64,000 nucleotides of DNA, taken from assembly GCF_058153355.1 (NCBI RefSeq), contig NZ_CM177019.1. One strand, 5' to 3'. Each line of letters starts with the position of its first letter. The stretch's first letter is position 1. A program made the translations under genes and the position numbers. Positions 5,661 through 64,000 of the stretch are shown here, in pieces. The notes below the pieces were generated by a model, which did no database searches, had not been told where the DNA came from, and saw only the letters and a program-made list of their open reading frames with translations.

Positions 5661-5748
5661 AGGTATAACCTGCGAGCATGACGCCACCAATTCCGCCTAA
5701 CGCCATAAACAGGAACAGGGCGATGACCCCAATTTTAGCTATGCGCAT
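5641..5748 (-). CDS. yohO: Small membrane protein YohO (35 aa, [35 protein letters not shown])
   Basis: Below the 60-aa ORF-track cutoff; AGGAG Shine-Dalgarno upstream; single hydrophobic helix; overlaps the 3' end of yehW on the opposite strand. Confidence 0.65.
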
Positions 5749-5807
5749 AATGCACTCCTTATGTTAACGAAAGGATTGTACAGTAAAGCGCATTTGTTAA
5801 CGAATCA

Positions 5808-6539: not shown

Positions 6540-6760
6540 CGTCTCACCCTTGCTCGCGAGGTCCCAGTTTAACTTTAGACGCAGTTTTGCGAACCAGGTA
6601 GTTTTGCCCGTTTTTTGTTCATCTATAGGGTGATTTTATTTTTGCCAGGCGATTTTGAGTGATCGTACTCACGAATTCTCATTTTTTTGCAAGAGTTCAA
6701 AGAAAGTTAAACGCAGGCAATGTATGTTACGCGTTTTAAAGGGAAGTGTGGTTTGCGGGT

Positions 6761-16921: not shown

Positions 16922-17002
16922 AAAAAAACCTGCTGGTGAGGCAGGTTCTTTTATTTACTACTTTGACGATAACTTGCTGATTGTGCAACATTTCGTACCA
17001 AC
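16922..17002 (-). ncRNA. orzO: Candidate antisense sRNA antitoxin (OrzO-like), about 80 nt
   Basis: Minus-strand TTGCAA-N17-TATAAT promoter (-10 at 17009..17014), 5' 18 nt complementary to the zorO leader, intrinsic terminator hairpin ~16929..16947 plus T-run. Confidence 0.55.
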
Positions 17003-21421: not shown

Positions 21422-21424
21422 TCC

Positions 21425-25213: not shown

Positions 25214-25225
25214 TGCTAATTCCTT

Positions 25226-39581: not shown

Positions 39582-39618
39582 GATAATAATTCTTAGTATT
39601 AATTCGGCAATCCGATTC

Positions 39619-39652
39619 TACTCCCCCCCAGTACCTGATACTACCCCCAGTA
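39619..39652. promoter_or_regulatory. Two RcnR operator sites in the rcnA-rcnR divergent region
   Basis: TACT-C7-AGTA at ~39619..39633 and TACT-ACCCCC-AGTA at ~39639..39652. Confidence 0.7.
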
Positions 39653-39700
39653 GAATAATAGTGCTATGATTTTTCATGTTCTTGTTAACCAGGTGTTGCC

Positions 39701-39973
39701 ATGTCTCATACAATCCGTGATAAACAGAAACTGAAAGCGCGTGCCAGTAAGATTCAGGGCCAGGTCGTGGCGCTCAAGAAAATGCTCGACGAGCCGCACG
39801 AATGCGCAGCTGTTCTACAACAGATTGCTGCTATCCGTGGCGCGGTAAACGGCCTGATGCGCGAAGTGATTAAGGGGCATCTGACGGAACACATCGTTCA
39901 CCAGGGGGATGAGCTAAAACGTGAAGAAGATCTGGATGTCGTTCTGAAGGTGCTGGATTCTTATATCAAATGA
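39701..39973 (+). CDS. rcnR: Ni/Co-responsive repressor RcnR (YohL)
   Basis: 90 aa, [22 protein letters not shown]... Confidence 0.9.
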
Positions 39974-40082
39974 AAGTGCCTAATATGGCCGTAGTTGAGG
40001 CAATAAATAGAGGGACAAGTGACGTTAAGCTGAATTAGAGTAAATGGCGTGAGGACACACGCCATTCGAGGATATAGTTTGA

Positions 40083-40397
40083 TTAATTTTCGAAAAATTG
40101 CTTCACAGCCCAGCCACCATGACCACCTGGAGTTATGAATGAAACAAAACCTTTGTCATCGACGCTCTGGATTTCTACTGTCATTGATTCATCTAACACG
40201 CGACATTTATTGGATGTAATGAGACTCAGCATAGCCTGTTGGTCATTGTCCTGGATGTAACTGATCATCTCGTAAAAGTCAGTTAACTTTTTACAGTTAA
40301 ATGTACCTTCTTTAAGTGTTGCGCTGTCTCCGTGACTTAGTGCGAATGCATTTGGCATCATTGCCACAAAGATGACGGTAACGAGTAGTTTTTTCAT
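40083..40397 (-). CDS. Hypothetical small secreted protein (104 aa, two Cys in mature part)
   Basis: Signal peptide MKKLLVTVIFVAMMPNAFA; low-GC island; no family recognised. Confidence 0.55.
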   Translation of the reverse strand: MKKLLVTVIFVAMMPNAFALSHGDSATLKEGTFNCKKLTDFYEMISYIQDNDQQAMLSLITSNKCRVLDESMTVEIQSVDDKGFVSFITPGGHGGWAVKQFFEN

Positions 40398-40406
40398 TGT
40401 AGCCTC

Positions 40407-40754
40407 TTATAATTCAGAACATTCACTGATGTTGTAAGTGCCTTTTCTACCATCATCGTTTACGAGATGTAGCACGAAGATGATGGGATTGGCATCAATG
40501 AAAGATACAGAGACGTTCCCGCTTTCGGTGCTATACATCTTTGCAATCTGTTTTTCACCAATATATGAAAGATCCCAACTCACTCCGTTCAAGCTAAAAT
40601 GCATCTGTTTGCCGTCAATATCGATGGAGGATTGTGCCGTAACGGTTTTCCCATTGCTGCCAATTTGACCCTGCTGAAGAGCATCACATTTATAGGAGCT
40701 TGCATAAGTAAATAGAGGTAGTAGCAGAAGTGCAGCAAAAATTTTACTCTTCAT
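40407..40754 (-). CDS. Hypothetical small secreted protein (115 aa, Cys near both ends of mature part)
   Basis: Signal peptide MKSKIFAALLLLPLFTYA; 9 bp upstream of the 104-aa ORF on the same strand. Confidence 0.55.
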   Translation of the reverse strand: MKSKIFAALLLLPLFTYASSYKCDALQQGQIGSNGKTVTAQSSIDIDGKQMHFSLNGVSWDLSYIGEKQIAKMYSTESGNVSVSFIDANPIIFVLHLVNDDGRKGTYNISECSEL

Positions 40755-41807
40755 ATTTTCCCTTTGCTTGGATTTGAGTTACCTATTTTGGGGTAGTCAT
40801 TATAAAACTATTAATTAGTAAAATGAACAAGTTTTCATTTGTTTAGTAATGGTATTGTTTAGGTTTGAAATTATTACGTACTTTCATAGCAATAGGTTGG
40901 ATAAACAGCAGTTCAGAGAACAAGTTGCACTATCTACATACTTTCCCGCTTTCCATTGTATGTTAGGTAATAGATAGCCTTTGCCCGTAAGACTAAAAAT
41001 ATTAGAAATGACTCATTCGAATACCTTCTATTCACCTTAATATAGGTTTGATTATTGTAATCGTTTAATGTGTCTTATGGATTTTTTCCTACTTTTCATT
41101 TGCATAATATAGGGGGCACAGCATGCTCTTGAAATTAATTATTAAGATATTTAAATTTTACAGCACACAACTACTTTTCGTTGTCTTATGTGTTGAACGT
41201 ACTTCGAGTATAGGTAGGGTTGTATATATATTGCGTGGGTAGAGTTAGAATAGAGGAGGCATCATTTATAGAATATTCAAGAACGTTAACCTGTGATCAA
41301 TAAATAAAAATATCAAATGGTGTTCAAACATATTTTTCTATGAAAAATCCAGCCATCTATGATGAATTTTTAGATCCATTTTAATTAAAGTATGATTATG
41401 AACCAATATTTAGCCAAGAATGGTGGTATAGCGCGTATCCAATGACACCGGAAAACGCATCTATGAAGTCCTTGTTTATCTCTATAAGAGGAAATCAACA
41501 CTAATAAAATATAGTGATGTAACACATCGAGCAGGTTGCTCTGATGCTGGTCTTCAACTGTGGCTTAAACAGCTATCAAACTTCGGTGTTATTGAGATGA
41601 AAGAATTATCTTTCTCAACTTTCAATCTCAAAAAGCTAGAGGAAATAGACCTTAATTATTCCACTCTCTAAACTTATCTCTTTATTTAAAGTAAAAATGA
41701 AAATATTATGGTATCAGCTACGTGGTGGTAACTGGTGTTTATGATCATAGGTACACATATACAGGGAACCCTGGAAAACAAAAGTAATATATTGATGATT
41801 TCGTTTG

Positions 41808-42047
41808 TTATAACTTCGTGGTATCAAGTCCGGCGGCTTTGAGTCGCTCGGTAAGATTTCTCATTTTGCTGAACTCTGTACCAAAGCTGGCTTTAAGTCC
41901 TACACCTTCGCAAAACTCTTTTGCCGTGACGTTTTTAAGATGGTCAGCGTATTTGATCATCTGGAGGTGCATTTCCATCGTTTGGCTATTTCGTGGTGCG
42001 CTGCTAATGGCTTGCTTAATGTTCTCGTAGATCTGGGTTTCTGTCAT
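41808..42047 (-). CDS. Hypothetical 79-aa protein, possible helix-turn-helix
   Basis: AGGTGAG Shine-Dalgarno ~8 nt upstream; HTH call is by eye only. Confidence 0.4.
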   Translation of the reverse strand: MTETQIYENIKQAISSAPRNSQTMEMHLQMIKYADHLKNVTAKEFCEGVGLKASFGTEFSKMRNLTERLKAAGLDTTKL

Positions 42048-42271
42048 TTTTTATCTCACCTATCAAATTTAGATAAATAATATAAATTAGATAAATAAGA
42101 TAATCAATAGTTTTTACCATATGAATAATGGATGTGGATTGTTTCTTTTTCATTTCTGATATGGAGTACAAAATGGGGTCACAATGAAGAAGCGATGAAT
42201 GGAGGCGAGCTTGCATCTGCAAGCCTCTTCCCCTAATCTGGCACAAAATATAGAGATTCAACCAAACGACT

Positions 42272-47599: not shown

Positions 47600-48873
47600 T
47601 TAACTTCCCCTTGTGTCAACGCAATATCGCGATCATCGACCTTGATAGCCGTAATTTCGTTGTCGGATTCGCGGAAAAAAATCATGAACAGCACGGCGAT
47701 AATGGCAATCATCACCGCGCCGAAAGTCCACATCCCGGACCAGTTGAAAGTCAGTCCGTTTACCGGTTCCGGATAAGCGAACATTTTCTCCATCATCACA
47801 CCGCCAAGACGATAGCCGAGCAAACTGCCGAATCCCTGGCAGCAGAGCGTGATCAGCCCCTGCGCAGCGGTACGCATATGCACGGGGGCTTTTTTATCGA
47901 CATAGATGTAAGCGGTAACGTAGTAAAAATCGTAACTTACTCCATGCAGCAAAATGCCAAGGAACAGTAACGCGTAGGTGAAATATTCATCCGCACTACC
48001 GTAAATAAAGAAGCCATAGCGGATCGCAGCGGTGACCAGACCAAGTAATAATACCTTTTTGATACCAAAGCGTTTGGTAAAAAACGGCAATGCCAGCATA
48101 AAGAAGATTTCAGAGAACTGGCCGAGCGTCATCCAGCCGGTGGCGTTTTTCATGCCGACTTCTGTCAGATAACCGTTGGCAAAGATGTAATAGAACGCCA
48201 GTGGCATCGCAAACAGGAATGAACAGAAGAAAAAGACGAGGAAGTTTTTATCGCGCAGCAGGATCAGCGCATCCAGGCCTAGCATGACTTTAATGTCCAT
48301 TTTGCCGGTGCTTTTTGGCGGCGTGTCGGGCAGGAAAAACGCAAACACACCGAGTAATGCGGAGCTTCCGGCGGTAATTAATAGTGGAATATTGGTCGGT
48401 GAGATATCGTCATATCCCAGCATCTGAGGCAGGAATCCGCAGACCAGGCCAGAGGCAATCCAGCCTATAGTCCCCAGTACGCGAATGCGCGGAAAATCGC
48501 GCTCCACATCCGGGACGTTAGCAAACGCGATGCTGTTAGTCAGCGCAATGGTCGGCATATAGGTCAATGAGTAGGCCAGCAGTAACGGGAAGAACCCGGC
48601 AAAAGTAGTCTGTTGCGCAGCGAAATACATCAGCACCGCACCAGCGAACATCAATACCGCCAGCACTTTCTGCGCCGAGAAAAAGCGGTCAGTGATGGAG
48701 CCAACCAGAATTGGCGACAGGATCGCCGCAATGGCGGTACAGGCATACGACCAGCCAATTTCCCCGGCACTAAAACCGCTTTTACTTAACCACAACCACA
48801 ATGGCACAAACCACGCGCCCCAGATAAACCATTCAACAAACATCATGAACGACAGCTTTGCTGTTGTTTTCAT
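47596..48873 (-). CDS. yegT: Nucleoside:H+ symporter family MFS transporter YegT
   Basis: 425 aa multi-TM; 4-bp overlap with yegU. Confidence 0.85.
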   Translation of the reverse strand: MKTTAKLSFMMFVEWFIWGAWFVPLWLWLSKSGFSAGEIGWSYACTAIAAILSPILVGSITDRFFSAQKVLAVLMFAGAVLMYFAAQQTTFAGFFPLLLAYSLTYMPTIALTNSIAFANVPDVERDFPRIRVLGTIGWIASGLVCGFLPQMLGYDDISPTNIPLLITAGSSALLGVFAFFLPDTPPKSTGKMDIKVMLGLDALILLRDKNFLVFFFCSFLFAMPLAFYYIFANGYLTEVGMKNATGWMTLGQFSEIFFMLALPFFTKRFGIKKVLLLGLVTAAIRYGFFIYGSADEYFTYALLFLGILLHGVSYDFYYVTAYIYVDKKAPVHMRTAAQGLITLCCQGFGSLLGYRLGGVMMEKMFAYPEPVNGLTFNWSGMWTFGAVMIAIIAVLFMIFFRESDNEITAIKVDDRDIALTQGEVK

Positions 48874-49129
48874 CTTTTAATTCCTTCATGACAGGTAATG
48901 TAAGGTACGCGATGACAATACCATTTAATAATACCTTTTAAATACCTTTGCGGTGAAAACTTGACCGCGGTAACATTTTTTCTGATGAATCGAGCCAACA
49001 GAAAACGCTGAAAAAACATCCAAAAGATGGAAAAACTCGCCTGTAACGACCAGGATTATGATTGCCCGCAAAAGGCGGGCCAGGACAATCCATAGCCGAT
49101 ATCCAATCGGAATTTACGGGAGCATAGTA

Positions 49130-50182
49130 ATGACAGATATTGCGCAGTTGCTTGGCAAAGACGCCGACAACCTTTTACAGCACCGTTGTATGACTATTCC
49201 TTCTGACCAGCTTTATCTCCCCGGACATGACTACGTAGACCGCGTGATGATTGACAATAATCGCCCGCCAGCGGTGTTACGTAATATGCAGACGTTGTAC
49301 AACACCGGGCGCCTGGCTGGCACAGGATATCTTTCTATTCTGCCGGTTGACCAGGGCGTTGAGCACTCTGCCGGAGCTTCATTTGCCGCTAACCCGCTCT
49401 ACTTTGACCCGAAAAACATTGTTGAACTGGCGATCGAAGCGGGCTGTAACTGTGTGGCGTCAACCTACGGCGTGCTGGCATCGGTATCGCGGCGTTACGC
49501 GCATCGCATTCCATTCCTCGTCAAACTTAATCACAACGAGACGCTAAGTTACCCGAATACCTACGATCAAACGCTGTATGCCAGCGTGGAGCAGGCGTTC
49601 AACATGGGCGCGGTGGCGGTTGGCGCGACCATCTATTTTGGCTCGGAAGAGTCACGTCGCCAGATTGAAGAAATTTCTGCGGCCTTTGAACGTGCGCACG
49701 AACTGGGCATGGTGACCGTGCTGTGGGCCTATTTGCGTAACTCCGCCTTTAAGAAAGATGGCGTTGATTACCATGTTTCCGCCGACCTGACAGGTCAGGC
49801 GAACCATCTGGCGGCAACCATAGGTGCAGATATCGTCAAACAAAAAATGGCGGAAAATAACGGCGGTTATAAAGCGATTAATTACGGTTATACCGACGAT
49901 CGCGTGTACAGCAAGTTGACCAGCGAAAACCCGATTGATCTGGTGCGTTATCAGTTAGCTAACTGCTATATGGGCCGGGCAGGGTTGATAAACTCCGGCG
50001 GTGCTGCAGGCGGTGAAACTGACCTCAGCGATGCAGTGCGTACTGCGGTCATCAACAAACGCGCTGGCGGAATGGGGCTGATTCTTGGACGTAAGGCGTT
50101 CAAGAAATCGATGGCTGACGGCGTGAAACTGATTAACGCCGTGCAGGACGTTTATCTCGATAGCAAAATTACTATCGCCTGA
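49130..50182 (+). CDS. fbaB: Class I fructose-bisphosphate aldolase
   Basis: 350 aa from [16 protein letters not shown]; ORF track extends 24 codons upstream. Confidence 0.9.
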
Positions 50183-50204
50183 TACGCCTCATACGAACAG
50201 CACT

Positions 50205-50336
50205 ACCCCGTAGGGCGGATAAGGCGTTCACACCGCATCCGGCAACCTATGCCTGATGCGACGCTGAAGCGTCTTATCATGCCTACACAGCGCTGCCACG
50301 TATGCCGGATAAGGCGTTTACGTTGCATCTGGCATA
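50205..50336. repeat. Cluster of REP/BIME extragenic palindromes
   Basis: Three REP-like units (gtagggcggataaggcgttcacaccgcatccggcaa and relatives). Confidence 0.6.
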
Positions 50337-50357
50337 AAAACACGCGCACTTCGTTAC

Positions 50358-50384
50358 GGCTTCCCCCGGGAGGCCGTTTTTTTT
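50358..50384 (+). terminator. Intrinsic terminator downstream of fbaB
   Basis: Hairpin ggcttcccccgggaggcc followed by an 8-T run. Confidence 0.65.
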
Positions 50385-50439
50385 ACCTGTCATTCTGATT
50401 AATTTTCATATTGTCGTTTTTGTGATCGTTATCTCGACA

Positions 50440-51366
<927 letters not shown>

Positions 51367-51367
51367 A

Positions 51368-52644
<1,277 letters not shown>

Positions 52645-52653
52645 GGACGGTAT

Positions 52654-53103
52654 ATGACTAACCTGTTTGTTCGTAGCGGAATTTCTTTTGTCGATCGTAG
52701 CGAAGTTTTAACCCATATCGGTAATGAGATGATCGCGAAAGGTGTGGTTCATGAAACCTGGCCACAGGCATTAATTGCCAGAGAAGCAGAATTCCCCACC
52801 GGGATAATGCTTGAACAGCACGCCATTGCAATACCGCATTGTGAGGCGATTCATGCTAAGTCGTCAGCTATTTATCTGTTAAGACCGGCGAATAAAATAA
52901 AGTTTCAGCAAGCTGATGATGATAACGACGTGGCGGTGTCGTTGATTATCGCGCTGATTGTCGAAAATCCGCAGCAGCAACTGAAGCTTTTGCGGTGCTT
53001 ATTTGGCAAGTTGCAGCAACCAGATATCGTTGAAACGCTAATCACCATTTCTGAATCGCAATTAAAGGAATATTTCACACAGCATATTTTAGATTCCGAA
53101 TAA
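52654..53103 (+). CDS. gatA: Galactitol PTS enzyme IIA
   Basis: 149 aa. Confidence 0.85.
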   Translation: MTNLFVRSGISFVDRSEVLTHIGNEMIAKGVVHETWPQALIAREAEFPTGIMLEQHAIAIPHCEAIHAKSSAIYLLRPANKIKFQQADDDNDVAVSLIIALIVENPQQQLKLLRCLFGKLQQPDIVETLITISESQLKEYFTQHILDSE

Positions 53104-53143
53104 CCAAAAACCTCTGTACCAATAAAAAGGATTGATTATGAAA

Positions 53144-53428
53144 CGCAAGATAATTGTCGCTTGCGGAGGCGCGGTTGCGACCTCTACGATGGCGGCGGAA
53201 GAAATTAAAGAGTTGTGCCATAGCCATAATATCCCCGTTGAAGTAATCCAGTGTCGGGTTAATGATAATGAAATAGAAACCTATATGGATGGCGTACATC
53301 TTATTTGTACTACCGCCAGAGTTGACCGCAGTTTTGGCGATATTCCGTTAGTTCACGGCATGCCTTTTGTTTCTGGTGTCGGTATCGAAGCATTACAAAA
53401 TAAAATTCTGACTATCTTACAGGGGTGA
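53144..53428 (+). CDS. gatB: Galactitol PTS enzyme IIB
   Basis: 94 aa from [16 protein letters not shown]. Confidence 0.85.
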
Positions 53429-53431
53429 CCT

Positions 53432-54787
53432 ATGTTTTCAGAAGTCATGCGTTATATTCTCGACCTCGGCCCTACGGTCATGTTGCCGATTGTCATCATT
53501 ATTTTTTCTAAGATATTAGGCATGAAGGCAGGCGATTGCTTTAAAGCGGGTCTGCATATCGGGATTGGCTTTGTTGGTATCGGCCTGGTGATTGGCTTAA
53601 TGCTGGATTCCATTGGCCCGGCGGCGAAAGCAATGGCGGAAAATTTCGACCTGAATCTGCATGTGGTCGATGTCGGCTGGCCGGGCTCTTCACCAATGAC
53701 CTAGGCGTCGCAAATTGCGCTGGTGGCGATTCCGATTGCGATTCTGGTTAACGTGGCGATGCTACTGACCCGTATGACGCGGGTGGTAAATGTTGATATA
53801 TGGAATATCTGGCATATGACCTTCACCGGCGCATTGCTGCATCTGGCAACCGGTTCATGGATGATAGGGATGGCGGGTGTGGTAATTCACGCGGCGTTTG
53901 TTTATAAGCTCGGCGACTGGTTTGCCCGCGATACCCGAAATTTCTTTGAGCTGGAAGGCATTGCTATTCCGCACGGTACGTCGGCGTATCTGGGGCCAAT
54001 TGCGGTGCTGGTCGATGTTATCATCGAGAAAATCCCAGGGGTTAACCGTATTAAATTTAGCGCCGACGATATTCAGCGCAAATTTGGCCCATTTGGCGAA
54101 CCTGTCACCGTGGGCTTTGTGATGGGGCTGATTATCGGCATCCTCGCGGGTTACGATGTCAAAGGTGTATTACAGCTGGCGGTAAAAACGGCGGCAGTTA
54201 TGCTGCTGATGCCACGGGTGATTAAACCCATCATGGATGGTTTAACGCCCATCGCTAAGCAGGCCCGTAGTCGTTTACAGGCGAAGTTCGGCGGTCAGGA
54301 GTTCCTGATTGGCCTTGATCCGGCGTTGCTGCTGGGGCATACGGCGGTGGTATCGGCAAGCCTGATTTTTATCCCGCTCACCATTTTAATTGCTGTTTGT
54401 GTTCCGGGTAATCAGGTACTGCCGTTTGGCGACCTTGCCACCATCGGCTTCTTTGTTGCGATGGCAGTTGCCGTGCATCGTGGAAATCTGTTCCGCACCT
54501 TAATCTCGGGTGTCATCATTATGAGCATCACCCTGTGGATCGCGACGCAAACTATTGGTTTGCACACCCAACTGGCGGCTAATGCTGGGGCGTTAAAAGC
54601 CGGGGGCATGGTGGCTTCAATGGATCAGGGCGGTTCTCCCATTACCTGGTTACTGATTCAGGTTTTCTCCCCGCAAAATATTCCCGGTTTCATTATTATC
54701 GGTGCCATTTATCTTACCGGTATTTTCATGACCTGGCGTAGAGCGCGCGGCTTTATTAAACAAGAGAAAGCCGTTCTCGCAGAATAA
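53432..54787 (+). pseudogene. gatC: Galactitol PTS enzyme IIC interrupted by an in-frame amber (TAG) codon at 53702..53704
   Basis: ORFs 53432..53704 and 53723..54787 are in the same frame separated by a single TAG; the codon encodes Trp (TGG) in intact GatC as I recall it. Confidence 0.7.
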
Positions 54788-55326
54788 TTTTTACCTGAGG
54801 GGGAGTTTATCCCCCTTAATAATCAGGAGTTTTTATGAAATCAGTGGTGAATGATACTGATGGTATCGTACGCGTTGCCCAACGAGTCATTCCTGAAATT
54901 AAACATCAGGATGAGGTGCGGGTAAAAATTGCCAGCTCGGGATTATGTGGTTCCGATTTACCCAGAATTTTTAAAAATGGTGCACATTATTATCCAATAA
55001 CGTTAGGCCATGAATTTAGCGGCTATATTGATGCTGTGGGATCCGGTGTTGATGATTTACATCCTGGCGATGCGGTTGCCTGTGTGCCGTTATTACCCTG
55101 TTTTACTTGTCCAGAGTGTCTGAAAGGGTTTTATTCCCAGTGCGCAAAATATGATTTTATTGGCTCACGGCGTGATGGTGGGTTTGCCGAATATATTGTC
55201 GTTAAGCGGAAAAATGTCTTTGCTCTACCTGCGCATATGCCTATTGAGGATGGGGCTTTTATTGAACCGATTACCGTTGGCCTGCATGCTTTCCATTTAG
55301 CGCAAGGTTGTGAGAATAAAAACGTT

Positions 55327-55339
55327 ATTATTATTGGTG
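55327..55339. repeat. Left copy of 13-bp target site duplication attattattggtg
   Basis: Identical 13-mer at 56766..56778. Confidence 0.8.
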
Positions 55340-56765
55340 TAATGCCAGTCAGTTAAGCAACTGACTGGCTCTTTTTCGGGGCTGTGGGGTATTTCCAGGG
55401 CCTCTCCTTTACCACTCTCGGGAAGGCCCTTTCCCTTCTTGTCGGTAATTTCACAAGTTGTCCCATACTTGCAAGATCGCGCATCAGCTCCGGTATACGT
55501 CCCGGTGAAGCGCCCTGCAATGTCATCAGCATTCTCATCACCATTCCGCATGATTCTGAGAAACTCAGTTGATTCGGCCAGTAACCTTTCAGATGTTCCG
55601 CCATTTTAATCATCTGATATCTCACCAGATTATAAGCCAGTAAGACACCCCACAGCTCTTGCTCCACAAGCTCCGGCTTTTTACTTCTCAGCGTCAGCCT
55701 GCTCAGTTGCATCGTCTGTTTTATCTCCCTGTATCCCAGTTCGATTTCCCAGCGATGACTGTACAGATCCGCCATTTCTCCTCCGGGGAAGCGCATGGCG
55801 TCCGTCATCGACGTCAGCAGATGGCAGACTTTTCCTTTGCGCGTCACGGTCAGCAGGCGGGCTGTCACTTCATTTCCCAGTCCCGGCCACTTTTTTCGTG
55901 CCTGCGGGCTGGTTTTCAGCTTCACCAGATGATCGCCTTTACCCAGTTTTCTGATCTCTTCATATTGCGCTCCCTTTCTGAGAGGTATCATCCAGTGGCG
56001 GTGTTCTCCCGCCAGGCTCCAGGCATTTAACAGTCCCAGTGAGTAATAACCTTTATCCATTAACGTCAGAGTGTTATCGCCGGTTTGTTCTATAAGTTGC
56101 TCAGCAAGCTCATTTTCGCTGTTCTTCATCGTGCCGAAGGCTGCAGCCGTCAGCAGATGGCTGGTCAGTTCCATCTGGCAGACCATTTTGACCTGCGGGT
56201 AGAGCGCCGGGTTCCCGGCATGTGTCTGGCGGGGGAAGGCTGCATCGTTCTCTGGTGTATCCGGTGTGCGCCAGAACACACCATCGATGGCCAGCAGGGT
56301 CAGGCCGCACCAGTGCGGATGCGGCGTGGCGTTATGCCAGAGCTGCGCTGTTTTCGTGAACACGCGGCGGACAGCCTCACTTCCCAGGCGCTGGCGGGCC
56401 TGAATAACGGCACTGGGGGCAACGAAGGGGCGATTGCCCGGCAGCATGATGTCCAGGCGATTCACAATCTGGTGAAGAGGTTCTTTACGCTCAAGCGCCA
56501 TGCCAACAATACACCAGACCATCATTTCGAGGGGAAGACGGCGCTTGCGTAGCGTTACAGTACCTGATTCGGCAAGGCAACGAGAGATGAGTTCGGGGTC
56601 GAGGTAATCCCCCAGAGAAGTCAGTGGGTTACGCAGAGAATCGTAACGGGATACCAGATCAAGAGCCTGTCCAATGTGCATAAAAAAATCCGGAAACAAG
56701 TGAGCGTTTCCGGATTCTTACACAGCCACTGGATCGGTCAACTGATCCTTAACTGATCGGCATTA
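55340..56765 (-). mobile_element. IS4 insertion sequence (1426 bp)
   Basis: Terminal inverted repeats taatgccagtcagttaag / taatgccgatcagttaag; single transposase ORF; flanked by 13-bp direct duplication. Confidence 0.85.
55353..56681 (-). CDS. IS4 transposase (DDE family)
   Basis: 442 aa from [20 protein letters not shown]; ORF track starts at an upstream TTG. Confidence 0.85.
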
Positions 56766-56778
56766 ATTATTATTGGTG
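56766..56778. repeat. Right copy of 13-bp target site duplication attattattggtg
   Basis: Identical to 55327..55339. Confidence 0.8.
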
Positions 56779-57413
56779 CCGGAACCATTGGCCTGCTGGC
56801 CATTCAGTGCGCTGTCGCGCTGGGAGCAAAGAGTGTGACGGCTATCGACATTAGCTCAGAAAAACTGGCACTGGCAAAATCTTTCGGTGCGATGCAAACA
56901 TTTAACAGCCTTGAAATGAGCGCGCCGCAAATGCAGCCCGTTTTACGCGAGCTGCGCTTTAATCAGCTTATCCTCGAGACGGCTGGCGTCCCGCAAACCG
57001 TCGAACTGGCGGTAGAGATTGCCGGGCCTCATGCCCAGCTGGCGCTGGTGGGCACGTTGCATCAGGATCTGCATTTAACATCGACAACGTTTGGCAAAAT
57101 ATTACGTAAAGAGCTGACGGTTATCGGCAGTTGGATGAACTACTCCAGCCCTTGGCCGGGGCAGGAGTGGGAAACGGCGAGCCGGTTGCTGACAGAACGT
57201 AAGTTAAGCCTGGAGCCATTAATCGCTCACCGTGGAAGCTTTGAAAGCTTCGCCCAGGCGGTGCGTGACATCGCTCGTAATGCTATGCCGGGCAAAGTGT
57301 TGCTTATTCCCTGAAACCGCGGGCCAGCGTGATGCTGGCCCGGTATTGTGCAAAACAGATCATTCACCAATGGTCCCCCTTCGTTTACACTAGCCACAAT
57401 TGAATATGGGTAA

Positions 57414-58193
57414 ATGACGATGAATTCATTCGAGCGAAGGAATAAGATCATCCAATTAGTGAATGAACAGGGAACCGTGCTTGTTCAGGATCTGGCGGGA
57501 GTATTTGCTGCCTCGGAAGCGACAATCCGTGCCGATTTGCGCTTTCTCGAACAAAAAGGCGTGGTTACGCGCTTTCATGGCGGTGCGGCGAAAATAATGT
57601 CCGGTAATAATGAAACCGAGACCCAGGAAGTCGGGTTTAAAGAGCGATTTCAGCTCGCCAGCGCGCCGAAAAACAGAATAGCGCAGGCGGCAGTCAAAAT
57701 GATCCACGAAGGGATGACCGTTATTCTCGACAGCGGAAGTACGACAATGCTTATCGCCGAAGGTTTAATGACCGCCAAAAATATCACGGTGATTACCAAC
57801 AGTCTCCCGGCGGCGTTTGCCCTTTCCGAAAATAAAGACATTACTCTGGTCGTCTGTGGTGGCACGGTCCGCCATAAAACGCGCTCGATGCATGGCTCCA
57901 TTGCCGAGCGTTCATTGCAGGATATTAATGCCGATTTAATGTTTGTCGGTGCTGATGGTATTGATGCGGTTAATGGTATTACGACCTTTAATGAAGGTTA
58001 TTCGATTAGCGGTGCGATGGTCACAGCCGCTAATAAAGTGATTGCCGTTCTCGATTCATCGAAATTTAACCGTCGCGGTTTTAATCAGGTACTGCCAATC
58101 GAAAAAATTGACATTATTATTACTGATGATGCCGTGTCAGAGGTGGATAAACTGGCATTGCAGAAAACACGGGTGAAATTAATTACGGTGTAG
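57414..58193 (+). CDS. gatR: DeoR-family galactitol operon repressor (intact)
   Basis: 259 aa uninterrupted; N-terminal HTH. Confidence 0.85.
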   Translation: MTMNSFERRNKIIQLVNEQGTVLVQDLAGVFAASEATIRADLRFLEQKGVVTRFHGGAAKIMSGNNETETQEVGFKERFQLASAPKNRIAQAAVKMIHEGMTVILDSGSTTMLIAEGLMTAKNITVITNSLPAAFALSENKDITLVVCGGTVRHKTRSMHGSIAERSLQDINADLMFVGADGIDAVNGITTFNEGYSISGAMVTAANKVIAVLDSSKFNRRGFNQVLPIEKIDIIITDDAVSEVDKLALQKTRVKLITV

Positions 58194-58204
58194 CATTGTT
58201 CTTT

Positions 58205-58237
58205 ATGCCGGATAAGGTGTGTACACCGAATCCGGCA
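58205..58237. repeat. REP element
   Basis: atgccggataaggtgtgtacaccgaatccggca. Confidence 0.55.
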
Positions 58238-58274
58238 ACACTGATACTCCCTGAATTAAGAAAGGGAAATTTGA

Positions 58275-59174
58275 TTAACGCAATAATGGACAATCCGGTG
58301 GTAATCGACAGCGCAATGCTGCCGGAAGTATTTCAATATGGAAGTTTTGTCCACTCAACGGTTCGCCATCAAGATTAAAGGTAATTTCGTGTGGCGCTTG
58401 TATATCGAACCACGCCGAAGCACCTTCGATAATATTCGGGTTATCTTCGTCAGATTTTAAGGTTGATACGAGAGCCGGAAGAATTTCATCGCCGGTGAAA
58501 ATGCGTAGTTGCAGCAAGCCGTCGTTAATTAATGCGTTCGGGCACAATTGCTGACCGCCACCTGCCTGACGGCCGTTACCAATACCAATGACTAGTGCGT
58601 CACCTTGCCAGTGAAAGTTTTCACCGCGGATTTCACAACGGTCCGGTTGCAGTGTATCCATGCGCATTAAGCCGTGAATGATGTAAGAGACGCCACCCAG
58701 CGCGGCTTTTAATTTTTCCGGCGTTTCTGTGGTAATACGTGTCCCAAACCCACCCGTTGCCATATTAATAAAACAGGTTTTTTTGTTGACCTGCGCCATA
58801 TCAATCGCAATAGCATCACCAGCAATTGCTAGTTTCAGCGCCTTATCCAGTGCCTCAGGTATACCCACGCTGGTCGCGAAATCGTTCGCTGTACCTAGTG
58901 GCAAAATCCCCAGCGCGGGTATGTCATCGCCCTCACACTGAATCAGCGCCGAGGAAACTTCATTAATAGTGCCATCGCCGCCACCGGCAATTACCGTTGC
59001 GACGCCCAGCTTCCGGGCCTCTTCTACAAATCGGGCGGCATCGCCTTTCTCCCAGGTGACCCGCACATGGATCGTCATTCCTTCCTCGCGCAACAGCATA
59101 ATTGCTTCGCGCAAGGGTTGATTGTCAGTACTTTTGCCGTTAAGAATCAGTAAGCTGGCGGGAAATTCTGCCAT
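58275..59174 (-). CDS. yegS: Lipid kinase YegS (diacylglycerol kinase catalytic domain family)
   Basis: 299 aa; GGDGT motif. Confidence 0.85.
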
Positions 59175-59257
59175 AATCGTATGCCTTTATGATTGGTCTG
59201 TAGATAGTGTAGAGCAGAAAAGAAAAGGCGGAGTCAGAACAGGATGAAAATCGGAGG

Positions 59258-59390
59258 ATAAAAAATCAGTTCAAGGATGGGGAATTCAGTGGTTACCAGT
59301 AAGGGGGGCAACGGTACACTCGGTTTTTATCGGCATAAATGATCACTGAAAGCACTTAAGCATTATTTTACTGTGGATTCAGCGTGGCAG
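59258..59390. repeat. Degenerate copy of the P2-type attachment core plus int-proximal arm
   Basis: By-eye alignment to 60321..60455, estimated 70-75% identity: ataaaaaat, accagta.ggggg, caacggtaca, cggcataaat, cactgaaagc, tactgtgga. Confidence 0.5.
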
Positions 59391-59530
59391 CGAACATTAA
59401 CGGTAGTCAGGGACAAACTTCAAAAGAGCATATGCATCATATTCAACAAAGCAATGGCATCCTCAATGTACGATTCCAATTATATTAAATAATTCCTATG
59501 AGGTTATCTGTGATAGGCCTCCATGTCTGT

Positions 59531-59552
59531 ATTTCCTACTTATGTAGGAAAT
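59531..59552. promoter_or_regulatory. Perfect 22-bp palindrome (candidate operator) upstream of yegR
   Basis: atttcctac-ttat-gtaggaaat, ~19 bp upstream of a TATAAT hexamer at ~59571..59576. Confidence 0.4.
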
Positions 59553-59656
59553 TCTGCACAAAACATTTATTATAATCCTATTCAATAATGACAATGATGT
59601 CATTATTATATTTCAACACTAGAGAGTGTCGTTGGTGTTTAATGGGGGAAGGTGAG

Positions 59657-59974
59657 ATGAAAAAGACAGTTGCTATATCATTAATTAGTGTTTTTCTTAT
59701 GTCTGGTTGTGCTGTGCATAATGATGAGACAAGTATCGGTAAATTCGGTCTTGCCTATAAAAGTAATATCCAGCGTAAACTCGATAACCAATACTACACT
59801 GAAGCCGAAGCATCTTTAGCCAGGGGCAGAATATCTGGTGCGGAAAATATAGTGAAAAATGATGCAGCTAATTTCTGTGTTACTCAGGGCAAAAAAATGC
59901 AGATAGTTAACCTGAAGACTGAAGGGGCAGGATTACATGGCGTCGCGCGTCTGACATTCAAATGTGGAGAGTGA
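59657..59974 (+). CDS. yegR: Small lipoprotein YegR
   Basis: 105 aa from MKKTVAISLISVFLMSGC; lipobox LMSGC. Confidence 0.8.
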   Translation: MKKTVAISLISVFLMSGCAVHNDETSIGKFGLAYKSNIQRKLDNQYYTEAEASLARGRISGAENIVKNDAANFCVTQGKKMQIVNLKTEGAGLHGVARLTFKCGE

Positions 59975-60322
59975 GAATAGATTCAAGACTACCATGGACA
60001 CATCCATTTTTATCTCTGATAAGGTATTCTTCAACACCATTATTGAATGTGAGTAATAATGACAAGCAGATAGATGAAACTACAGCAGAATTTTTATTTT
60101 ATGCGGCTATCAGAAAATGATGGCATAAATATTCCTATGCTTTAGCTTCATTTTTTGTAAGCGTCAAACATGCGCGTTCTGGCTGTGCGTAGCCGGACCC
60201 TGTGCGAGCACGATGCCGTTAAGTGAAAGGCATCGTGCTATGAAGGGGAATTCTATCGATATGGTCAATGGAAGGAGGTAACCAGGTATGAATCCTTCCT
60301 TCTGTTTCATTGAATTACGCAT

Positions 60323-60349
60323 AAAAAATAAGCCCGTGTAAGGGAGATT
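60323..60349. other. P2-type attachment core at the host/prophage junction (attL)
   Basis: aaaaaataagcccgtgtaagggagatt, the 27-bp P2 core as I recall it, ~80 bp from the int stop. Confidence 0.7.
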
Positions 60350-60428
60350 TAGGGTGTCACCAGTAGGGGCTTTCAACGGTACAATGCGGGTTTGAGCGGC
60401 ATAAATTACCACTGAAAGCCCTTAAACG

Positions 60429-61442
60429 TTACTCTACTGTGGACACTGTGTGGACACTCTCGGCCTCAGTACCACCTCTTAGCGGATTAAGAGAAATGGC
60501 GTCCTGAAGGTACTCTGGCGCAAAGTGAGCGTAAACCATAGTTTGCTCAATCCGCGTGTGACCTAGTATCCGTTGTAGCGTGATAATACTTCCTCCATTA
60601 ATCATGAAATGAGTGGCAAAGCTGTGCCTTAGTGCATGTGTGGCTTGCCCCATTGGCAAATCCGGTTTTATTGCTTTCATTGTTCGTCTGAAGCGAGGGT
60701 AATCAGCATCAGGGAATAAAAAACCTCGTTTGTTATCCGCGATCATTTTGGCAACAGCCTCTGAGATCGGGACGGTGCGTGGTTTGTTTGTTTTCGTTTT
60801 AACAAACGTGACGCGGTTATGGATGATATTTTCTGCTTTCAAACGAGCTGCTTCTCCCCAACGTGCTCCAGTACTCAGGCAAAGAATCGCAATCTTTTTA
60901 TTGTCGCCGTCAAGAGCAGCAAGCAGTAAGGCAATTTCTTCCTGCGTGAGATAGCCTGTGTCTGGTTTTTCCTCCTTAAGCCTTTTTGTCCCTCTGATAG
61001 GGTGCTCACCAAAGAATAACTCCGCTTCAATCAGGGCTGTAAACATGCCGCTAATACATGTTAAATCACGATTGATACTCGAAGGTTTAATACCCTGACT
61101 TCTTCGGGTGGCGCAGTACTGGCTGATAAGCGATTTCGTAATTTGAAATGCGCATGGGTCATTCGTTATTTTTGTGAAGATTTCAATTTTTCCAAGATTA
61201 GATTTCCCATGCTCTTCGTGTTTACCCTTTAAATCCCACCAGATCTGTGTCAGCTCCGACAGACGTCGCTTGTCTGTTGGTTTTGATAGCCATTCTTTAT
61301 TGTGGTGGTTGTACAACGTGTATTTCTCGAAAGCGACAGCTTCGCTTTTCTTATCAAACTTCCTACGGATGCGTTTTCCATTACGTCCAGTAGGGCGGAT
61401 GTCCACTTCATATCGACCATCATCGAGTTTTTTGATTGCCAT
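60429..61442 (-). CDS. int: P2-type tyrosine integrase
   Basis: 337 aa; catalytic RxxR...HxxRH...Y signature in the C-terminus. Confidence 0.9.
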   Translation of the reverse strand: MAIKKLDDGRYEVDIRPTGRNGKRIRRKFDKKSEAVAFEKYTLYNHHNKEWLSKPTDKRRLSELTQIWWDLKGKHEEHGKSNLGKIEIFTKITNDPCAFQITKSLISQYCATRRSQGIKPSSINRDLTCISGMFTALIEAELFFGEHPIRGTKRLKEEKPDTGYLTQEEIALLLAALDGDNKKIAILCLSTGARWGEAARLKAENIIHNRVTFVKTKTNKPRTVPISEAVAKMIADNKRGFLFPDADYPRFRRTMKAIKPDLPMGQATHALRHSFATHFMINGGSIITLQRILGHTRIEQTMVYAHFAPEYLQDAISLNPLRGGTEAESVHTVSTVE

Positions 61443-61557
61443 CAGAAAACCCTCCGAGTGGTGTGTTTTTTGGCGACTACTAATCGCTTTTTTCGTGGTG
61501 GCTGAAATTTAGCCACCAATAGTAGGCACTTGTGATGAATATATTCACGATGAATTG

Positions 61558-61857
61558 TTAACCAGTCTTTTGACCGGAGTGGGGCGACGTTGTTTCGTTT
61601 TGCCCAAAGTGTGCGAGAGCGGGCGCAATTTGCCCGGACTCAGGAGCGATCTGATTGGTCATGAACCATAAAGTGTATTTGGTGAATTGTGGGGTCTGCA
61701 GGATGTTCATCATGACATCTGTTGGAGGTGTTGAACGACCACTTTCATAGTAACTCAGCGTGCCATACGGAACCCCTGTTAAATCAGCAAGTTGTTGTCT
61801 GCTCAAATACTCTGATTTTCGCATTAAGACTATCTTCTCGCTTATCGTGTTTGACAT
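61558..61857 (-). CDS. C: P2-type immunity repressor C
   Basis: 99 aa with HTH (LSRQQLADLTGVPYGTLSYYESGRSTP). Confidence 0.85.
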   Translation of the reverse strand: MSNTISEKIVLMRKSEYLSRQQLADLTGVPYGTLSYYESGRSTPPTDVMMNILQTPQFTKYTLWFMTNQIAPESGQIAPALAHFGQNETTSPHSGQKTG

Positions 61858-61971
61858 GGTGTTTAGATCTCAATAGTATTTAGTTTAGATGTAGATTGTT
61901 TAGTGCTTGGATGTGGGCACTAAAAGGCATTATAAGGCATTAAACGCAATTCATGAGGGCTGGAGGACGAC
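61858..61971. promoter_or_regulatory. P2 Pc/Pe divergent promoter-operator switch region
   Basis: Divergent C and cox starts; tttagat-type direct repeats (tttagatctc, tttagtttagatgtagattgtttag). Confidence 0.6.
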
Positions 61972-62247
61972 ATGAGCAAGCAAGTAACACTCATGACTGA
62001 TGCGATTCCTTATCAGGAGTTCGCAAAACTAATAGGAAAATCGACAGGAGCGGTTCGTCGGATGATCGATAAAGGAAAGCTGCCTGTAATTGATATGACC
62101 GATCCACAATCAGCTTCAGGTCGTGCAGGTGAATATTGGGTATACCTTCCGGCATGGAATAACGGACTAAAACTGGCTTATGAAAGCCGCCCTAAAGAGA
62201 TTCGTGACGGCTGGTTGATGTGGTTAGGTCTCGGTGAACCACGTTAA
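61972..62247 (+). CDS. cox: P2 Cox (excisionase / repressor of Pc)
   Basis: 91 aa, first gene of the early rightward operon. Confidence 0.85.
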   Translation: MSKQVTLMTDAIPYQEFAKLIGKSTGAVRRMIDKGKLPVIDMTDPQSASGRAGEYWVYLPAWNNGLKLAYESRPKEIRDGWLMWLGLGEPR

Positions 62248-62428
62248 GGAGAACCGTATGAATGAGCCTCGTTGTATTGCTCAGTTACTGCGTAACGAAA
62301 GCCCCAGGGCGATTGACTTCAACATCACCCACGGTAAGGGGCGTAAGGGAATCATTATCCGCACCAAAAAACAGAGTCCGTTAAAAAAGGCTCTGACCTT
62401 TCTGAAAAGCCGGAGGGTATGGAAATGA
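62234..62428 (+). CDS. P2 orf78-like small protein
   Basis: 64 aa ORF overlapping the cox end, in P2 gene order. Confidence 0.6.
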   Translation: MNHVKENRMNEPRCIAQLLRNESPRAIDFNITHGKGRKGIIIRTKKQSPLKKALTFLKSRRVWK

Positions 62429-62925
62429 CAGTGATGACGCTCAATCTCGTTGAAAAACAGCCAGCAACTATGCGCCGGATAATTGGTAAGCATCTGGCCG
62501 TCCCTCGCTGGCAGGAGACATGCGATTATTATAATCAGATGATGGAACGTGAACGGCTAACGGTTTGCTTCCATGCGCAGTTAAAACAGCGTCACGCAAC
62601 GATGCGTTTTGAAGAAATGAACGACGTCGAACGTGAACGACTGGTATGTGCAATTGATGAATTGCGTGGGGCATTCTCAAAACGCCGTCAGGTTGGCGCA
62701 AGTGAGTATGCATATATTAGTTTTTTAACAGTCAGTCAGCGTCGCACTTTATTTATGCACGCACGACTGACAGAAAAAGAATTTAACCAGCCATACTGGC
62801 GAATTAATGAAGAATCATGTTACTGGCGTGATGCTTTATTCCGTGCATTACGTGAATTATTCAGTCTGTTTGAGTATGCACCGACAATTCTGACGTCGGT
62901 AAAACCAGAGCAATATCTGCATTAA
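62425..62925 (+). CDS. B: P2 replication protein B
   Basis: ~166 aa; position after cox/orf78. Confidence 0.75.
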   Translation: MTVMTLNLVEKQPATMRRIIGKHLAVPRWQETCDYYNQMMERERLTVCFHAQLKQRHATMRFEEMNDVERERLVCAIDELRGAFSKRRQVGASEYAYISFLTVSQRRTLFMHARLTEKEFNQPYWRINEESCYWRDALFRALRELFSLFEYAPTILTSVKPEQYLH

Positions 62926-62955
62926 GTAATTAACCAGAGTTTTTAACGCACTTAA

Positions 62956-63213
62956 TTGTGCGGGGCTTCTTTTTGCCTGGAGAAAGTCATGCATACAGTT
63001 TCTGAAAATCAGTGCGGTATATACGCATTACTGCTGCAACAGGCCAGAACCGAAGCACAGGCTGACGCTGCGACGCGCTTTTCTTCTCATCTTGACGCCA
63101 TGATTCGCCACATCACAAAGGCGGAGTTATCCCGCGTGGAGATAGTCGAGCTGCTCAGTCAGGAGTCGGAAAAATTTCACAATATCGGATTGTCTCGTGG
63201 GGAGGTGCTTTGA
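62956..63213 (+). CDS. P2 orf80-like protein
   Basis: 85 aa ORF in the early operon. Confidence 0.6.
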
Positions 63214-63515
63214 TGTCCTGTTCTCATTCAGTTGTATTACTGAATAACGCCTTAAAAATCGCCGTTATGGAAAATGGCGATTTGTCTCTTATTCAACTTG
63301 GTCTTGATAAAGAAAAGCGCGACATAACTGAATCTGTTATCGCGATTTATCAGAGCGAATTAAACCTCCTGTCTGATGTGATCAATTTACTTGTGAAACG
63401 CGCTGTATTTCACAAGCAAATTTCCTCAGTGGATGAACTGACAAAATTAACGACAGAACTCGCCAGCTATTGCGCTGATGAATTTAAGAAACTGAACGAC
63501 AAAAGGAACTGGTAA
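63210..63515 (+). CDS. P2 orf81-like protein
   Basis: 101 aa; 4-bp overlap with previous ORF. Confidence 0.6.
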
Positions 63516-63739
63516 TGCCGGACAACGTAGATTTCATTCAGGAACAACAGGCTGAATTACTGGAGCGCCAGATTAACGCGGCAAGGGTAAAACATTGCGG
63601 TGCTTCTGCGCTGGTTTGCGAAGAGTGTGACGCGCCAATACCTGCTGCCCGTCGTGCGGCTTATCCGTCAGCCACGCGTTGTGTTTCCTGTCAGTCAGTC
63701 TTTGAAGCAAAAAACAAACATTACCGGAGAACGGCATGA
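63515..63739 (+). CDS. P2 orf82-like TraR/DksA-family zinc-finger protein
   Basis: 74 aa with C-x2-C ... C-x2-C motif. Confidence 0.65.
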   Translation: MPDNVDFIQEQQAELLERQINAARVKHCGASALVCEECDAPIPAARRAAYPSATRCVSCQSVFEAKNKHYRRTA

Positions 63740-64000
63740 GTATTCGTATTGAAATTGGCGAACGTTATGTCGTTACCAGTGACAGCTTCCAGTTTATTCT
63801 CCACGAGAAAAAGAGAGCGGAAAGCGGTAAAAACGCCGGTCAGGAATGGCTGGCGGTGGTTGGTTATTACCCGAAATTAAGCCAGCTCGTTTCCGGCCTG
63901 ATGCATCACGATATTCTGACCGGAAGCGCAAAGTCTTTTGCTGATTTAAACGCGCAGGTTGAGCAACTCAGCAAGCGTTGTTCAGAGGCTTTTGGCTCAT
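63736..64000 (+). CDS. P2 orf83-like protein, truncated by the window end
   Basis: ATG at 63736 overlapping the orf82 stop; frame open to position 64000. Confidence 0.5.
   Translation, partial: MSIRIEIGERYVVTSDSFQFILHEKKRAESGKNAGQEWLAVVGYYPKLSQLVSGLMHHDILTGSAKSFADLNAQVEQLSKRCSEAFGS

Follow-up and report, generated by a model that had tools for sequence, protein, structure and literature searches.

The temperate phage P2 (AF063097 / NC_001895) is the archetype of the non-inducible temperate phages according to Bertani & Bertani (1970), as that work is cited in PMC5009727. Its early architecture of int, repressor, face-to-face promoters, Cox/Apl-type excisionase, B and A is shared by coliphage 186 and W-phi (PMC3448106), which are heteroimmune and have other repressors, operators and att sites. 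Escherichia coli K-12 carries the ogrK-yegZ remnant, and 'phage TP' (AY639599) is likewise of P2-family origin; both lie beside yegR/cyaR, the site considered here, and are right-end relics alone (D', ogr, attR). Here we describe positions 60323-64000 of a stretch of 64,000 nucleotides, which is called the window in the following. With high confidence, these positions represent the attL junction and the early and immunity region of a P2-type prophage (genus Peduovirus) that, judged from a read set matching the window, is essentially full-length (~32 kb) and recently acquired.

When aligned with P2 AF063097 24356-28033, positions 60323-64000 showed 53 substitutions and 0 indels (98.6% identity over 3679 bp); gene set, order, spacing and regulatory sites are those of P2, and the difference consists of the 53 point changes. 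The 27-bp core, the Cox boxes, the Int P' arm repeats, the Pe/Pc promoter hexamers, the operators O1 and O2, C and cox are 100% identical to P2, and all ORFs of the region are intact. Because repressor, operators, Int and core match P2, the prophage has the same immunity type and integration specificity. The Peduovirus phages P22H1, P22H4, P24C9, 9W and 10W share the gene set and are 98.4-98.5% identical over the whole 3.7 kb. Identity to P2 is 98.6% in the window, 97.7% over the 5.9 kb shared with the window-identical contig L024 (see below) and 96.6% over the right-end 6 kb, while the cargo regions differ. For the species Peduovirus P2 the ICTV rule asks for a genome-wide nucleotide identity of 95% or more. 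An earlier note had proposed a P2-like left end in the canonical order attL-int-C-cox-B-orf80-83, with intact integrase and repressor; each element was found in its place, and the left end is real, functional-looking and ordinary. It is of an already known kind, and nothing within the window departs from P2.

Attachment site, integrase and host flank

The following features make up the attachment region and int.

60256-60322, no strand: attL bacterial arm (B), decayed P2 P-arm-like host DNA with degenerate Int arm repeats and an IHF region
60323-60349, + strand: 27-bp att core AAAAAATAAGCCCGTGTAAGGGAGATT, attL crossover region; 27 of 27 bases as in the P2 attP core
60366-60439, + strand: Cox-binding region of attP (P' side), required in excision; equals P2 24399-24472, annotated as protein_bind Cox
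60429-61442, - strand: int, P2-type tyrosine integrase, 337 aa; Pfam Int_N and Phage_integrase
60437-60463, + strand: Int arm-type P' sites, two TGTGGACA direct repeats; equals P2 24470-24496

A single residue out of 337 (E161D) separates Int from the P2 protein, although the gene carries seven nucleotide changes. The Int arm-type consensus is tgTGGaCa (PMC3448106). The core is present as a single copy in the window, and none of 100 shuffles matched it even when up to three mismatches were allowed; read on the minus strand, it makes up the 3' portion of the terminator of cyaR. The left border of the core is the precise end of P2 homology, and leftward of it comes E. coli DNA with yegR and yegS; the site is thus an attL junction and not an attP. 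The phage integrated through site-specific recombination by Int at the classic P2 site, where the core forms the 3' end of the sRNA gene cyaR, with yegR on one side and yegQ on the other. A contig of read set SRR28786219 shows the empty site without a prophage and is free of mismatches to the host flanks for 10.7 kb leftward and 12.4 kb rightward. In this contig CyaR overlaps the core (Rfam RF00112, 100.7 bits), whereas no Rfam family matched 59900-64000 at E ≤ 1, because the residual 27 nt of cyaR at attL are too short to score. An 82-aa ORF spans the attL junction.

The bacterial arm itself resembles the P arm of P2, with 32 of 42 bases matching and a local score of 39 (13.9 ± 2.2 for shuffled sequences; 0 of 2000 shuffles reached 39); BLAST against P2, P22H4 and 9W gave 77-83% identity with their P arms. 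Such a resemblance would be expected if 60256-60322 and the core formed the attP-like joint of two tandem P2-type prophages rather than a host-phage junction. This arrangement is extremely improbable, as yegR ends 348 bp to the left of the core with no phage genes between, and the Int repeats of the arm are decayed (TATGGTCA and GGAAGGAG versus TGTGGTCA and TGTGGACG in P2). The tandem arrangement was dropped because the prophage-free sites E400634 and SRR28786219 carry the same P-arm-like flank, 100% identical in sequence. We therefore keep to a simple host-phage attL, and the empty attB by cyaR may be a scar left by an older P2-family attR, its decayed P arm still abutting the core. If so, P2-type phages keep re-using a site that was made by an ancestor.

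Immunity switch and early operon

The switch between lysogeny and early expression comprises the following elements.

61558-61857, - strand: C, immunity repressor, 99 aa; 100% nucleotide identity to P2 C; HTH_3
61851-61890, + strand: Pe early promoter (-35 at 61851-61856, -10 at 61874-61879); identical to the P2 annotation
61861-61868 (O1) and 61883-61890 (O2), flanking the Pe -10: operator half-sites, both GTTTAGAT; as in P2
61929-61954, - strand: Pc, driving the C-int operon (-10 at 61929-61934, -35 at 61949-61954); hexamers as in P2
61972-62247, + strand: cox, 91 aa, Pc repressor and excision directionality factor; gene 100% identical in nucleotides to P2 cox; Phage_Cox, E = 5.5e-48

The two operators correspond to the tttagat-type repeats that the earlier note gave for the Pc/Pe switch. 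In a promoter scan Pe was the best promoter-like site of the region (10/12), and the Pc spacer carries one substitution relative to P2, at position 61937. As in P2, Pe and Pc are arranged face-to-face and cox is the first early gene. It is followed by these features.

62258-62428, + strand: orf78, 56 aa; 55 of 56 residues as in P2 Orf78; phrog_273
62425-62925, + strand: B, replication protein, 166 aa; 162 of 166 residues as in P2 gpB; phrog_235; Pfam Phage_RepB (precomputed tables)
62947-62974, + strand: putative rho-independent terminator after B; equals P2 26980-27007, also found by the terminator scan
62989-63213, + strand: orf80 (DUF2732), 74 aa; protein identical to P2 Orf80; Pfam DUF2732
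63213-63515, + strand: orf81 (DUF5405), 100 aa; 93 of 100 residues as in P2 Orf81; Pfam DUF5405
63515-63739, + strand: orf82 (TraR/DksA-type zinc finger), 74 aa; identical to P2 Orf82; Pfam zf-dskA_traR
63736-64000, + strand: orf83 (DUF5405), first 265 of 276 bases by P2 alignment; the window edge lies 11 bases before the gene end

The early order cox-orf78-B-orf80-81-82-83-A is that of P2, seen in the window as far as orf83 and with A in contig L024, which holds the complete orf83 and gpA (Phage_GPA, E = 1e-123); the start of gpA would be at 64001. The earlier note had not listed orf78, which lies between cox and B. In P2, B is needed for lagging-strand synthesis.

The regulation outlined here is modelled on established P2 biology (PMC5009727, PMC3448106 and the P2 annotation). 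C and int would be co-produced from Pc, as the identity to P2 suggests, and C bound to the two GTTTAGAT operators flanking the Pe -10 would keep the early operon cox-orf78-B-orf80-83-A switched off, thereby maintaining lysogeny and conferring immunity to P2. Firing of Pe would bring in Cox, which would repress Pc and would also bind, jointly with Int and IHF, in the interval separating core and P' arm so that excision is directed; B and A would then replicate the genome.

It had been suggested that the prophage may be inducible, given that int and repressor look intact. Both are indeed intact, as is every other gene and site for lysogeny and excision, and the occurrence of a lysogen and a non-lysogen with identical flanks points to recent integration or excision. 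Induction by DNA damage through the SOS response is nevertheless quite unlikely. C is 100% identical to the repressor of P2, the non-inducible archetype cited above, and is neither a cleavable CI-type repressor nor accompanied by a LexA-controlled switch or antirepressor, the hallmarks of SOS-inducible prophages. A search for LexA boxes found none in or near the Pe/Pc switch; its only two one-mismatch matches lie inside int and occur at chance frequency. Phage 186 is SOS-inducible via Tum, but no 186-type CI/Tum module is present in the early operon, which is that of P2 gene for gene. Moreover, int is transcribed from Pc and is shut off by Cox, so that even derepressed P2 excises poorly. Because C is the non-inducible P2 repressor and the switch has no LexA box, the prophage is expected to be released spontaneously on rare occasions only, or to be derepressed by satellites (P4, for example), rather than to respond to SOS induction.

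The prophage beyond the window and its cargo

Completeness and cargo were assessed from the public read set SRR31441161, whose contigs were located via a rare YegR allele and the product of a lineage-specific split HEAT-repeat gene; they match the window exactly, although identity of the isolate cannot be proven. Contig 25 of this set (L024) is 100% identical to window positions 56736-64000 (7265 bases) and continues with gpA, a SIR2-HerA cassette and gpQ (the portal gene, called full length). The cassette consists of two genes that overlap by 14 bases.

L024 9633-10880: SIR2; PDLC02186, E = 3e-188 (PADLOC)
L024 10867-12687: HerA; PDLC02185, E = 6.5e-272 (PADLOC)

By these profiles, the cargo of the gpA-gpQ hotspot is a predicted SIR2-HerA anti-phage system. 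P2 carries orf91-tin-old in the same hotspot, and its gpA has 761 aa as compared with 770 aa in L024. The earlier note had placed variable cargo past gene A, beyond position 64000, which is where the cassette lies. In assigning old, tin and Z/fun together to that interval it was right about the gpA-gpQ cargo but not about Z/fun, which sits far onward, between tail-fibre and sheath genes. The Z/fun position of P2 is occupied here by a 175-aa ORF assigned to phrog_5483, in which an Rx4H motif was recognised by eye and which could be a new exclusion gene.

The right end was recovered on contig 89 of SRR31441161, which carries FI, FII, E, T, U, D, ogr, the P arm, the core (attR), cyaR and yegQ. 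The left contig runs 21,745 bp from the attL core, its genes having been read as far as the portal gene and the remaining 12.1 kb being known by length alone; the right contig contributes 8,000 bp with intact tail genes and ogr before attR. Together the two contigs account for 29.7 kb of the expected 31.8 kb. About 2 kb of tail-fibre genes, namely the C-terminal part of H together with G, are unassembled in this read set and may hide an insertion or a defect. Both contigs break off at points that correspond to H and G in the prophage of strain PEC395, as is typical of a repeat-induced assembly break.

The window alone cannot separate a full prophage from a decayed, domesticated remnant, in which int-C-cox-B-A and the defence cargo were kept and the structural genes lost, comparable to the K-12 ogrK-yegZ remnant. 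Such remnants of the same SIR2-HerA P2 variant do exist at the same site: one in strain 18AR0366 (L008) measures 10,511 bp core to core, and another in GCA_045581035.1 (L042) measures 11,745 bp, with the portal gene retained and P, FII and D reduced to fragments. For the present prophage a remnant is nonetheless very unlikely, given the lengths of the two contigs, the intact FI, FII, E, T, U, D and ogr, and the position of the breaks in H/G. The truncated remnant against which the earlier note had cautioned was looked for in SRR31441161, where both prophage ends are present, in contrast to the right-end relics of K-12 and 'phage TP'. As merely ~2 kb of H/G are unassembled, we regard the prophage as essentially full length.

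Relatives, spread and significance

Among 5426 complete E. coli genomes, 738 (~14%, about one in seven) cover at least 80% of window positions 59975-64000, and the SIR2-HerA cassette occurs in 14 of the 5426, which makes it rare. P2-type prophages with the same left end occupy the yegR-cyaR site in strains 317, 13E0767, PEC395 and ATCC 11775, among others, with host flanks that differ by 5-11%. Over its first 9.65 kb the prophage of contig L024 is matched at 99.93% identity by those of PEC395 and 13E0767, which have the same SIR2-HerA cargo and all the genes of P2. The PEC395 copy (NZ_CM168010.1 1744250-1776052) spans 31,776 bp core to core, and in 13E0767 H is broken by ISEc12. The same phage, with 1 mismatch in 9652 bp, was found in a host whose flanks are 89-95% identical, which points to recent mobility. 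P22H1, P22H4, P24C9, 9W and 10W carry gpA-gpQ cargo different from SIR2-HerA. No phage record in the collection searched covers at least 80% of a query made of backbone plus cassette, the best record reaching 63%, and on this basis no sequenced phage in that collection carries SIR2-HerA on this backbone.

The SIR2-HerA-carrying P2 variant appears to be spreading actively. The combined proposal, that the cyaR attB is an old attR scar and that this variant is spreading with a possible new exclusion gene, is tentative and in our view rather doubtful as a whole.

The left end is a textbook element of little importance in itself, and its value lies in annotation. It marks the start of a ~32-kb prophage and predicts both P2 immunity and the capacity to help P4-type satellites. 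It also directs attention to the gpA-gpQ hotspot, which begins soon after the window and in the matching read set holds SIR2-HerA. With their identical flanks, the read sets of lysogen and non-lysogen would offer a clean natural control for the effects of prophage cargo.

Left end of a P2-type prophage

The element at window 60323-64000 is confirmed as a P2-type left end (attL, int, C, cox, B, orf80-83), and this interpretation is supported except as regards inducibility. Among phage records, megablast aligned window 60322-64000 with bacteriophage P2 (AF063097) 24355-28033 at 98.6% identity and with the Peduovirus isolates P22H1, P22H4, P24C9, 9W and 10W at 98.4-98.5%; a base-by-base alignment with P2 contained 53 substitutions and no indels. 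The element is already known and ordinary. Its ORFs were listed and its regulatory sites were mapped from the P2 annotation. C and cox are nucleotide-identical to P2, Int differs by a single conservative change (E161D), and Orf78, gpB, Orf81 and Orf83 differ by 1, 4, 7 and 1 residues, respectively. Comparison with the P2 annotation revealed no stops or frameshifts in the ORFs of the element, and Pfam agreed with the assigned families. The 7 nucleotide changes in int alter one residue and the roughly 20 in B alter four, which, as read from the substitutions, is a pattern of purifying selection. P2 alignment, P2 annotation and Pfam agree with the coordinates and gene order of the earlier note; every item of its gene list is present, the sole omission being orf78. 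All mapped regulatory sites are unchanged from P2.

Regulatory sites of the left end (window coordinates; each the same as in P2)
60323-60349: 27-bp core
60366-60439: Cox-binding region
60437-60463: two Int arm sites of the P' arm, each TGTGGACA
61851-61879: Pe
61861-61868 and 61883-61890: operators O1 and O2, each GTTTAGAT
61929-61934 and 61949-61954: Pc hexamers
62947-62974: terminator 3' of B

Identity with P2 (P2 annotation; PMC5009727; PMC3448106) suggests the following mechanism. Pc would transcribe C and int leftwards, and C bound to O1 and O2 would shut Pe, with lysogeny and immunity to P2 as the outcome. Pe would transcribe cox-orf78-B-orf80-83-A; Cox would repress Pc and, bound at the cox boxes that lie between core and P' arm, would direct excision together with Int and IHF. 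Because the proteins and sites concerned all match those of P2 exactly or almost exactly, the integration and immunity module should be functional. The suggestion that the prophage may be inducible is unlikely to hold in the SOS sense: the repressor is P2's own, P2 is the standard example of a phage that is not inducible (Bertani & Bertani 1970, cited in PMC5009727), and no LexA box was found in the Pe/Pc switch, so that the prophage should not be SOS-inducible.

The attachment site in cyaR

P2 homology extends leftwards no further than the core, beyond which lie the E. coli genes yegR (59588/59657-59974) and yegS (58275-59174). Strain E400634, which has no prophage here, is identical to the window up to and including the whole core, after which it enters the yegQ (trhP) side. 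An empty-site contig (Logan, SRR28786219) matches window 48218-55339 and 56766-60349 with 0 mismatches. In this contig the terminator and U-tail of CyaR (Rfam RF00112, 100.7 bits) coincide with the core, which therefore makes up the 3' end of this sRNA gene; an intact cyaR must then stand at attR, beyond the window. We take the site to be the classic preferred P2 site (locI), presumably occupied in K-12 by a cryptic remnant. The K-12 gene order at this position, cyaR-ogrK-yegR (PMC9765468), fits this identification.

The host arm at 60256-60322 is similar in sequence to the P2 P arm, with 32 of 42 bases shared over the Int arm repeats (score 39, versus 13.9 +/- 2.2 in shuffles, none of 2000 reaching 39) and what looks like a degenerate IHF region. 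Tandem prophages, which such a flank might indicate, were rejected: the Int arm repeats are decayed and prophage-free strains carry exactly the same bases (L015, an E. coli locus, and L023, the empty-site contig), so the arm is host DNA. The simplest reading of its likeness is that the attB in cyaR is what remains of an older P2-family attR. The yegR-attB spacer also holds a perfect 11-bp inverted repeat (60207-60239; AGCACGATGCC ... GGCATCGTGCT) with no T-run after it, kept in other E. coli (L003, L004).

Other features of the window

An IS4-family element (55340-56765) with a 448-aa transposase ORF (NF033592, E = 9e-91) lies in gatD, which is free of IS4 in the empty-site contig. Aligned to the uninterrupted allele, the host sequences on either side of IS4 share about 13 bp, consistent with a target duplication. 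gatC (PTS galactitol IIC; window 53723-54787, empty-site contig 5215-6570) is split into 90-aa and 354-aa pieces, also in the read set without IS4, and the galactitol operon appears to be decaying in this lineage. Relative to strain 317, about 2.2 kb is added between rcnR and the thiM TPP riboswitch (39582-42260), annotated in E400634 as a small outer-membrane protein, a hypothetical protein and an HTH-like fragment. The minus strand gives an Rfam match to OrzO-P, the antitoxin RNA in a zor-orz type I toxin-antitoxin locus (16922-16995; 90.6 bits), and carries three consecutive ORFs of about 1220-1265 aa each (17765-29023), presumably at the molR/yehH-yehI position of the K-12 map; a neighbouring strain has a frameshifted WGR-domain pseudogene annotated here, whereas in the window all three are intact.

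The prophage beyond the window, its cargo and its relatives

Among complete E. coli genomes the best match reached 98.6%. Contig 25 of read set SRR31441161, reached by exact-protein look-up of a rare YegR allele, matches window 56736-64000 at every one of its 7265 bp and, like the window, starts at the IS4 end inside gatD. Past the window it carries, in order, the end of orf83, gpA (770 aa), SIR2 (415 aa; PADLOC E = 3e-188), whose gene overlaps that of the HerA ATPase (606 aa; E = 6.5e-272), and the portal gene gpQ, called full length (344 aa). The cargo that the earlier note had expected beyond position 64000 is, in this contig, SIR2-HerA between gpA and gpQ, a known system in a known hotspot: Rousset et al. 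(PMC9122126) recorded 1,650 arrangements in 18,150 loci there, that of P2 being old and tin, and cite Gao et al. 2020 for SIR2 plus HerA as a system of defence.

Contig 89 of the same read set, reached via the product of a lineage-specific split HEAT-repeat gene, runs from mdtB to yegQ, cyaR, the core, the P arm, ogr, D, U, T, E, FII, FI, a 175-aa ORF and the start of G, where it ends; over the 12,365 bp of host sequence and core, it has 0 mismatches to the empty-site contig. The 175-aa ORF (19368-19895, minus strand) occupies the Z/fun position, with G and FI as neighbours; it belongs to phrog_5483 and has no Pfam or PADLOC match, and by eye its RNKISH stretch reads as an Rx4H motif such as occurs in HEPN domains.

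Starting at the attL core, the left contig covers 21,745 bp; the right contig adds 8,000 bp up to the attR core. The PEC395 prophage (99.93% identical) measures 31,776 bp core to core with a full P2 gene set. The two contigs break off within what in PEC395 are the tail-fibre genes H and G, which leaves a gap of only about 2 kb, and the prophage of this clone is very probably close to full length; what the 12.1 kb of contig 25 past gpQ contains we infer from contig extent and relatives. Since remnants with int through HerA exist, the window alone could not decide between a full prophage and the truncated remnant considered earlier; the contigs beyond it point to the near-full-length form.

At least 80% of window 59975-64000 is covered in 738 of 5426 complete E. 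coli genomes (~14%). Among prophages with the same Orf81 the cargo after gpA varies (SIR2-HerA, an Old-like protein, a DEAD helicase with retron Ec48, unknown genes). The SIR2-HerA cassette is rare (14/5426), every time beside gpA; phage records in the collection covered at most 63% of a backbone-plus-cassette query, corresponding to the shared backbone only. In the related P2-type prophage of strain 317, a GTP pyrophosphokinase gene between S and V (L002 40940-42019) makes that interval look like a further cargo site.

Decayed versions of 10.5 kb (strain 18AR0366, L008, CM132283) and 11.7 kb (GCA_045581035.1, L042) have kept int through A and SIR2-HerA and lost nearly all structural genes by independent deletions, a pattern consistent with domesticated defence cargo. 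The same phage, with 1 mismatch in 9652 bp, is also present in a host that in its flanks shares only 89-95% identity with the window; together with lysogen and non-lysogen contigs of identical flanks, this sequence evidence argues for recent, active spread of the phage.
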